A stretch of DNA of 64,000 nucleotides from an uncultured Chloroflexia bacterium (GTDB taxonomy: Bacteria > Chloroflexota > Limnocylindria > Limnocylindrales > CSP1-4). Location of the stretch: assembly GCA_963805585.1 (NCBI GenBank), contig CAWDUR010000033.1, forward strand, positions 119 through 64,118, written 5' to 3'. Every line of letters starts with the position of its first letter. Positions within the stretch are counted from its first letter, which is position 1. Made by a program: the position numbers and the translations under genes. A model generated the notes under the pieces. The model was not told where the DNA came from. It ran no database searches and was given only the letters and a program-made list of their open reading frames with translations. This document shows positions 60,175 to 60,301 of the stretch, piece after piece.

Positions 60175-60203
60175 TTGACCCCATCCGGCCGCGACGCCAA
60201 TAT
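60175..60203 (+). promoter_or_regulatory. sigma70-like promoter
   Basis: TTGACC-17 nt-CAATAT; predicted start near 60210, at the 5' end of the structured region. Confidence 0.45.
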
Positions 60204-60210
60204 CTGGGTT

Positions 60211-60301
60211 GCCCGGAGGGGCCACCCGCGAACCAGATCCGCTGAGATCGCATCAGCGCGGATCAGGAGCGCGAAGGTCGCTCCGGGCGCTTCTTCGTGT
60301 T
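60211..60301 (+). ncRNA. candidate structured RNA or riboswitch-like leader upstream of PNP
   Basis: GCCCGGAG/CTCCGGGC, CGCG/CGCG and GATCCGC/GCGGATC nested stems; alternative GGAGCG/CGCTCC hairpin; U-rich tail. No Rfam family recognised. Confidence 0.4.

Follow-up and report, generated by a model that had tools for sequence, protein, structure and literature searches.

The region between an RDD-family gene and a purine-nucleoside phosphorylase (PNP) gene, in an uncultured bacterium of the class Limnocylindria (Chloroflexota), raises a simple question: is the structured RNA that seems to be encoded there a cis-acting switch for the downstream gene, or is it a small RNA in its own right? The window, that is the whole stretch of 64,000 nucleotides that was analyzed, lies on contig C33 of a 2.18-Mb, 60%-complete MAG. 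The first-pass annotation of this region had described a promoter, a rod-like fold, and an alternative hairpin, and had proposed an uncharacterised riboswitch or attenuator for a nucleoside gene or, as a second option, an independent small RNA. The features used in the argument below are collected in Table 1.

The putative promoter of the window copy, TTGACC-N17-CAATAT, is present as first described, with a 17-nt spacer, and both the hexamer pair and its spacing are kept in homologues. A generic promoter scan does not call it, CAATAT having only three of six matching positions, and a generic terminator scan, which requires five T in 8 nt, misses the end of the window copy. Hence, the reality of both signals rests on conservation. 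The gene order RDD, element, PNP is maintained across the genus, and the promoter and the RNA are conserved in 18 of its 24 genomes. In these 18 genomes, the intergenic DNA is 70–85% identical, while the flanking RDD protein is only 36–57% identical. An alignment of 19 intergenic regions shows four TCCAC/GTGGA boxes, then TTGACC-N17/18-CATAGT, then the RNA itself, from UUGCCCGGAGGGGCC to GGUCGCUCCGGGC and followed by a U-rich tail, and finally a non-conserved spacer up to PNP. The PNP gene stands downstream of the element as annotated, with its ATG at 60363; this start is backed by homologues, which align from residue 1.

Table 1. Features of the RNA gene in the window, its candidate control sites, its downstream gene, and its paralogues in the source genome (positions without a contig name are those of the window).
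Feature	Position	Strand	Remarks
DnaA-box-like site 1, TTCTCCACT	60095-60103	+	7/9 to TTATCCACA; TTxTCCACC block kept in 19 aligned regions
DnaA-box-like site 2, TCCTCCACA	60106-60114	+	7/9; GTCCACA block conserved
DnaA-box-like site 3, + strand reads GGTGGACGA	60128-60136	-	6/9 to TGTGGATAA; CGTGGAC block conserved
DnaA-box-like site 4, + strand reads CGTGGACAA	60161-60169	-	7/9; 5 nt upstream of -35
-35 hexamer TTGACC	60175-60180	+	direct from sequence; most frequent -35 of type A (28 loci) and of type B (54 loci)
-10 hexamer CAATAT	60198-60203	+	family consensus CATAGT / TAnnnT; 5 nt ahead of UUGCCC
Small RNA, type A, one module	60209-60302	+	rod-shaped hairpin and U-rich tail
P1, 5' strand GCCCGGAGGGGCC	60211-60223	+	partner 60276-60288
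P2, 5' strand CGCG	60227-60230	+	partner CGCG 60270-60273
Apical module	60233-60268	+	P2b/P3 stem closing 13-nt loop GAGAUCGCAUCAG (60244-60256)
P1, 3' strand GGUCGCUCCGGGC	60276-60288	+	changes only by GC/GU exchanges, pairing preserved
U-rich tail GCUUCUUCGUGUUC	60289-60302	+	terminator-like
Purine-nucleoside phosphorylase, PunA/DeoD-II type	60363-61223	+	PF01048 and NF006054 matches, 329 bits
Type B copy	C27:14110-14199	+	locus L142; loop ACGAUCGCAUCAC
Type C paralogue	C33:81042-81135	-	locus L144; ~17 kb past the end of the window
Type D paralogue	C17:~270306-270490	+	~180 nt; UUGCCCGAAGGGGC to GGUUCCUUCGGGC

The predicted structure of the RNA is a rod. For 60209-60302, it is the minimum-free-energy structure (-50.8 kcal/mol, z -3.84; none of 200 shuffles folds as well), and it contains all three nested pairings seen at first pass. 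Indeed, within P1, GCCCGGAG (60211-60218) pairs with CUCCGGGC (60281-60288), the two CGCG strands form P2, and GAUCCGC (60236-60242) pairs with GCGGAUC (60258-60264) in the apical module. A looser stretch of 161 nt has a z of only -1.74. An extension of the rod to about 150 nt, by pairing of the flanking GCCA..TCTG and CAGA.TGGC, had also been suggested; it would draw on the -10 region, which precedes the inferred start, and relatives do not keep it, so that we discard it. Relatives of the RNA fold alike, with a 13-bp P1, a purine-rich internal loop, P2, and then one to three hairpin modules. In each module, a 4-bp stem (P3) closes a 13-nt loop, G(A/C)GAUYRC(A/C)UCAA, which is thus displayed in one to three tandem copies. 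The invariant positions of this loop, G1, G3, A4, U5, C8, U10, C11, A12, and A13, are interspersed with variable ones.

The distribution of these relatives was established in two ways. A pattern scan over 185,579 species genomes gave at least 120 matches, nearly all in Limnocylindria MAGs; the pattern required the 5' strand of P1 and the loop, so that the collected set is biased towards both, and in this set the P1 5' strand owes part of its near-invariance to the pattern. With the covariance model R1, the RNA is found in all 44 genomes of the window's family (f1) and in all 50 genomes of a sister family (f4), both belonging to Limnocylindria, as well as in 2 of the 49 genomes of f3 and in none of the 6 of the streamlined f2; about 137 genomes of other Chloroflexota families gave no match to this model. 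A broader model, R2, raises the count to 7/49 in f3 and gives 3–5 copies per genome in f4, and according to the covariance models the number of copies per genome is 2–5 in f1 and f4. These tallies take in four unpublished genomes (G123, G132, G147, and G158), which contribute to the counts but not to any sequence given here. The window RNA itself scores 65.4 bits with R1 and 63.5 bits with R2. It is about 90 nt long, and members of the family generally have about 75–95 nt (71–73 nt for type B and 74–82 nt in f4). The idea that P1 represents MITE-like inverted repeats of a mobile element was rejected, synteny being conserved across the two families.

The source genome carries four copies, namely the type A copy of the window and one copy each of types B, C, and D (Table 1). 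In the type B copy, the letters that vary preserve pairing (CCCGAAGGGG with CCUUCGGG), and the RNA sits about 90 nt ahead of a gene for a 293-aa membrane protein for which there is only a weak GIDE-like lead. The type C copy has three GTGGA(C/T)AA boxes, a TTGCCC-N17-TAGCGT promoter, and CAGCCCGGAGGGGCC. Its boxes, promoter, and P1 are like those of the other copies; its interior is different and is devoid of the GAUCRCAUCAA loop, and it is followed by a second hairpin and by a 49-codon ORF of the CxxC...CxxC zinc-ribbon kind. The type D copy shares the ++-- box array of the window copy; one of its loops reads GCGAUUCACCUCAA, and it contains a GGGAGCGAUCC hairpin, with about 250 nt up to the next clear gene start. 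Longer, two-module forms occur among type A variants of other genera (L056, L058, L078, L085, L087, L096, and L101). In these seven loci, the modules are separated by an additional hairpin, CGGGAGCAAUCCCGG, whose tetraloop is GCAA (GNRA), which hints at a tertiary contact.

Searches for a known family agree with the description of the RNA as uncharacterised. With Rfam 15, cmscan of window positions 58000-64000 at E <= 10 returned nothing on the element and only three chance matches elsewhere, nor was the element matched at E <= 1 in any of six related loci (types A and B). A description of the family was not found in the literature searched. As judged from these comparisons, the element of the window is a real, conserved hairpin RNA and a member of a so far undescribed family of small RNAs, present in several copies per genome in Limnocylindria.

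Covariation in homologous intergenic regions, the check proposed along with the initial annotation, gave a positive answer in the three sets that were analyzed, with none of 500 shuffles reaching the observed value in any of them. For type B (65 sequences aligned with MAFFT), 95.9% of the cells are paired and 75 are doubly changed, as compared with 26.4 in shuffles; controls in which the pairing was slid reach 34–49%. For f4, where the alignment of 58 sequences was fitted to the model and therefore leans towards the structure, 93.6% of the cells are paired and 114 are doubly changed vs. 33.7. Compensatory changes in P1 of f4 are illustrated by one pair occurring as UA (32), GC (19), or UG (5) and by another occurring as AU (30), GC (17), or GU (9). 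Across the family, P1 is 95–99% paired. The interior of type A could be aligned reliably neither with MAFFT nor by fitting to the model, and ungapped modules anchored on the loop were used instead. In 71 such modules, P3 is 84.9% paired, with 45 doubly changed cells vs. 15.9 in shuffles and compensatory changes at all four pairs, the slid controls being 15–40% paired. Over the three sets, slid controls range from 15 to 57%. In P2 of the window type, CACG/CGUG (13 cases) vs. CGCG/CGCG (4 cases) corresponds to a compensatory exchange of A-U for G-C. All helices of the rod thus have the support of compensatory changes, while a three-pair helix that could form within the loop is either invariant or broken and finds no covariation support. 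At the level of sequence comparison, the compensatory changes, together with the conserved promoter, loop, and terminator tail, show that selection acts on the RNA. Present in every genome of two Limnocylindria families and with clear covariation, it would give this little-studied class, whose members live in soil and freshwater, a well-supported RNA family that is absent from Rfam.

The signals at both ends of the RNA gene can be followed through the family. The arrangement TTGnnn-N16-19-[TC]AnnnT-N4-9-P1 is found in 43 of 52 type A loci, in all 66 type B loci, where the promoter is TTGACC-N17-TAGCGT, and in 54 of 58 f4 loci. The hexamers are those of a sigma-70-type promoter, 16–19 nt apart and at a position that is kept relative to the transcript. 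Because the spacing from promoter to stem is constant, transcription would start at about 60209-60211, at the base of P1. In f4, the -35 hexamer is poor, as expected of an activator-dependent promoter. At the other end, the 13-bp P1 provides a GC-rich stem directly followed by a U-rich tract, the organization predicted for an intrinsic terminator. The U tract is broken up by C and G, and the 11 nt past the stem contain on average 4.6–4.9 U, with a minimum of three in every group.

Such an RNA could be a leader. In f1, it is always co-oriented with the next gene, and both main types are close to it. Type A lies upstream of PNP in 39/39 loci and type B ahead of a single membrane-protein family in 65/65; no domain of Pfam or NCBIfam is recognized in this protein, which has only the weak GIDE-like lead mentioned above. 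Moreover, in four type A loci (L006, L009, L017, and L019), an AGGAGG and a start codon occur about 10–20 nt past the RNA tail, so that the RNA is physically the PNP leader. In such a reading, a ligand or a protein might decide whether the P1 terminator forms and hence whether PNP is transcribed, and the invariance of the P1 5' strand, facing a 3' strand that is merely complementary, would suit a factor that captures the 5' strand against termination. As in terminator-based leaders and riboswitches, the f1 RNA runs from the transcription start, ends with a stem and a U-rich tail, and is followed by a gene. A purely cis-acting role may therefore apply in f1.

As an account of the family, however, a cis-acting PNP leader or attenuator seems to us unlikely. 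The first objection concerns the switch itself. GGAGCG (60266-60271) can pair with CGCUCC (60279-60284), and this hairpin, mutually exclusive with the rod, had been taken as the sign of a switch. Such pairing is at chance level: the longest alternative helix with the P1 3' strand has 5.77 contiguous pairs in type A vs. 5.61 in shuffles, 4.59 vs. 5.04 in type B, and 5.27 vs. 4.93 in f4, so that in none of the three groups does a pairing that would compete with the terminator stand out from the controls. The second objection concerns the neighbors. A nucleoside riboswitch is hard to reconcile with an RNA that precedes mutually unrelated genes, those of a GIDE-like membrane protein and of a zinc-ribbon ORF, and that in f4 has convergent genes or a tRNA behind it. 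The number of modules, which varies from one to three, and the lack of any match to an Rfam riboswitch argue in the same direction. The further suggestion of a 6S-like RNA does not hold either, as the RNA has about 75–95 nt instead of about 180 nt and small internal loops without a central bubble, and there is no match to RF00013 at E <= 10.

In the sister family, f4, the closest gene past the RNA is convergent in 37–42 of 58 loci, often ending 1–26 nt beyond the tail, and one copy is followed by a tRNA; the RNA of f4 is thus not, as in f1, always the 5' leader of a co-oriented gene. These gene calls were made with a GC1 > GC2 rule added to GC3, and examples were verified by Pfam, which identified the Lhr helicase C-terminus, uracil phosphoribosyltransferase (Upp), and a glycosyltransferase among the convergent genes. 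With such neighbors, transcription has to stop at the stem and U tail of the RNA, so that the family consists of self-terminating small RNAs, for which a leader role is not obligatory. The family therefore differs from terminator leaders, riboswitches, and 6S RNA in having no antiterminator above chance, no co-oriented downstream gene in most f4 loci, and no Rfam match. Of the original interpretation, the conserved structured RNA with its own promoter stands and the switch does not, and the independent small RNA, there the second option, is the best fit. As a side observation, one f4 paralogue is always tail-to-tail with upp and another with lhr (L177, L188, L193 / L175, L184); with PNP in f1, RNA genes are repeatedly found beside genes of nucleotide salvage or DNA repair.

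An independent small RNA may still influence PNP. In L006, L009, L017, and L019, there is no room for a separate promoter between the RNA and the gene, and PNP is most likely transcribed by read-through. PNP thus probably lacks a separate promoter and would depend on polymerases that read through the RNA terminator.

The most distinctive feature of the family, absent from the first-pass annotation, is the array of DnaA-box-like sites that occupies 60095-60169, upstream of the promoter. Boxes were counted as 9-mers with at most two mismatches to the DnaA box TTATCCACA. There are on average 2.8 boxes per locus in type A, 1.9 in type B, and 2.4 in f4, as compared with 0.02–0.11 in control windows (0.02 for type A). 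Their positions are fixed as well. In type A, two forward-orientation boxes are centered near -115 to -100, opposite in direction to those closer to the promoter, and reverse-orientation boxes lie near -80 to -90. A box centered near -48 occurs in 47/50 type A, 32/65 type B, and 57/58 f4 loci, and all 58 f4 loci have a further box near -78; many of the f4 boxes are perfect TGTGGATAA. In the alignment of the genus, the block of site 4, TCGTGGA(C/T)AAC, is kept in all 19 relatives. Several matches to TTATCCACA, enriched and at fixed positions, are what would be expected of a DnaA-box cluster or a promoter regulated by DnaA. The boxes of the window match the consensus at only six to seven of nine positions and are too degenerate for a strict two-box filter (at most two mismatches to the consensus in each box, 27–34 bp apart); in the 2.18-Mb assembly, the strict arrangement has a single occurrence, at the type C copy.

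The match to the consensus makes DnaA the candidate binding factor. The box-flanked promoters suggest a link between the RNA family and the control of DNA replication, and their unusually rigid architecture is an indication that the small RNA is coupled to the replication initiator. No small-RNA family under DnaA control was found in the literature searched. That the boxes simply reflect the neighborhood of oriC or dnaA was considered and rejected: dnaA is on contig C26 in the source genome and 0.2–0.6 Mb away from the RNA genes in near-complete relatives, and there are several copies per genome.

DnaA-box clusters and DnaA-regulated promoters are known in Bacillus subtilis. In Escherichia coli, datA, DARS1, and DARS2 are DnaA-box clusters outside oriC (PMC4585315). 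The Limnocylindria loci resemble all these clusters in having two to four DnaA-box-like 9-mers, in intergenic DNA and away from dnaA, with position and spacing kept. They differ in that each array is fused to a promoter driving a conserved structured RNA. To our knowledge, neither datA and DARS nor the clusters of B. subtilis are associated with such an RNA. One may imagine that the Limnocylindria loci act at the level of DNA, as sites that titrate or reactivate DnaA, the transcript being incidental. Three to five loci per genome with phased arrays, at 0.2–0.6 Mb from dnaA, would suit this role. We consider it highly improbable, as compensatory changes, promoter, loop, and terminator tail all denote selection on the RNA; the two roles are not mutually exclusive.

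The reading that we prefer, with a probability of about 0.5, is that of a small RNA governed by the DnaA-box-like sites, ended by its own stem, acting in trans through its apical module, and continued by read-through into PNP. Transcription would start from the sigma-70-type promoter at the base of the 13-bp, GC-rich P1. The RNA would fold into a rod whose tip exposes one module with the conserved 13-nt loop, or up to three modules in relatives, and P1 together with the U-rich tail would form its own intrinsic terminator. Most likely, DnaA, or a factor sharing its recognition sequence, would govern the synthesis and tie it to replication status. Once released, the RNA would most likely act in trans by its apical module or modules, protein binding or titration being favored over base-pairing. 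Finally, in f1, polymerases passing the terminator would also transcribe PNP, which would bring nucleoside salvage under the same promoter. The ends of the transcript, the identity of its regulator, termination, read-through, and action in trans are all deduced from sequence.

The choice of protein binding deserves some discussion, as a trans-acting RNA could also pair with mRNAs, the exposed 13-nt loop serving as a seed and additional modules as additional seeds. The conserved loop, which should be single-stranded according to prediction, tops a stable hairpin with a terminator, and multi-copy paralogues are reminiscent of known small-RNA families that share a seed. Even so, we find such base-pairing doubtful. 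In the loop, invariant positions adjoin one another only in GAU and UCAA, and positions 2, 6, 7, and 9 differ among the paralogues of one genome. Outside the RNA genes, exact complements of 10–11 nt occur only in coding regions, for example over D-H-I-N codons, and exact 10–11-mers of the loop revealed no conserved complementary site at a ribosome-binding site or start codon. Protein binding is favored because invariant and variable loop positions alternate, modules multiply in tandem, the sequence of P1 is conserved, and complements of the loop are confined to RNA genes, paralogues, and coding D-H-I-N codons. Two particular targets were also considered and dismissed. Some loops, GAUCACCUC, resemble the 3' end of 16S rRNA and could have been anti-Shine-Dalgarno mimics; most loops read CAUCAA. 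Pairing with the dnaA leader would involve just 4–7 bp, which is not meaningful.

A bolder version of the preferred reading would make the family the RNA arm of a DnaA regulon. DnaA would turn on three to five dispersed genes, and the RNA would use its conserved loop and stem to bind a factor of replication or of the cell cycle, perhaps DnaA or a regulator of DnaA, thereby giving feedback on initiation and coupling nucleotide salvage to the replication cycle. We rate this version as quite unlikely. If it were true, PNP, through read-through, and upp, nearby in f4, would tie salvage to replication.

The family can finally be compared with known small RNAs. The cyanobacterial Yfr2-5 and the actinobacterial 6C RNA are multi-copy short RNAs with their own promoter and terminator, in which hairpin loops keep a motif. 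The Limnocylindria RNA is likewise short, has its own promoter and terminator, and exists as several paralogues with a loop motif, but it has no sequence or Rfam similarity to either. The loop G(A/C)GAUYRC(A/C)UCAA with its nearly invariant closing stem, and the phased DnaA-box-like sites of the promoter, are peculiar to the Limnocylindria family. CsrB and RsmZ are protein-titrating RNAs made of a variable number of repeated hairpins with GGA loops. By analogy, hairpins that vary in number and show one conserved loop motif could fit multivalent protein binding; however, the Limnocylindria loops lack GGA and there are only one to three modules, so that the resemblance is one of analogy and not of membership. 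The Caulobacter cell-cycle non-coding RNA CcnA is controlled by CtrA and has the ctrA and gcrA mRNAs as pairing partners; its gene is single-copy and located at the origin (PMC8959179). It shares with the Limnocylindria RNA a synthesis tied to a master regulator of replication or the cell cycle, as inferred on the Limnocylindria side, and has no homology to it. Thus, the Limnocylindria RNA belongs to none of the Yfr2-5/6C, CsrB/RsmZ, datA/DARS, and CcnA systems; among bacterial small RNAs, it forms a new family with an unusual DnaA-box promoter.

Some minor observations concern the neighboring genes. In two loci of lower-GC relatives, L264 (G126:C1:1478614) and L260 (G111:C2:439802), coding D-H-I-N codons read GAUCACAUCAA, which is identical, not complementary, to the RNA loop; the translation, ITDHINLSGDNP, resembles a conserved PNP motif. 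The PNP gene of the window is devoid of this string, and its occurrence in the two coding sequences is probably a coincidence. Upstream of the box array, a perfect GC hairpin, GCGCGCGGGCGCGCC-GUAU-GGCGCGCCCGC, is located at 60063-60092, 4 nt past the stop codon of the RDD-family gene. Though it has no U tract, it is probably the terminator of this gene; in relatives, its place is taken by another hairpin, GACCCCGG...CCGGGGUC. The other genes around the locus look ordinary. They include thyX, convergent to PNP (61260-62201, - strand), a long ORF that ends in a TerB domain (62090-63997, + strand), and, upstream in the window, acetyl-CoA synthetase and MoaA-like radical-SAM genes.
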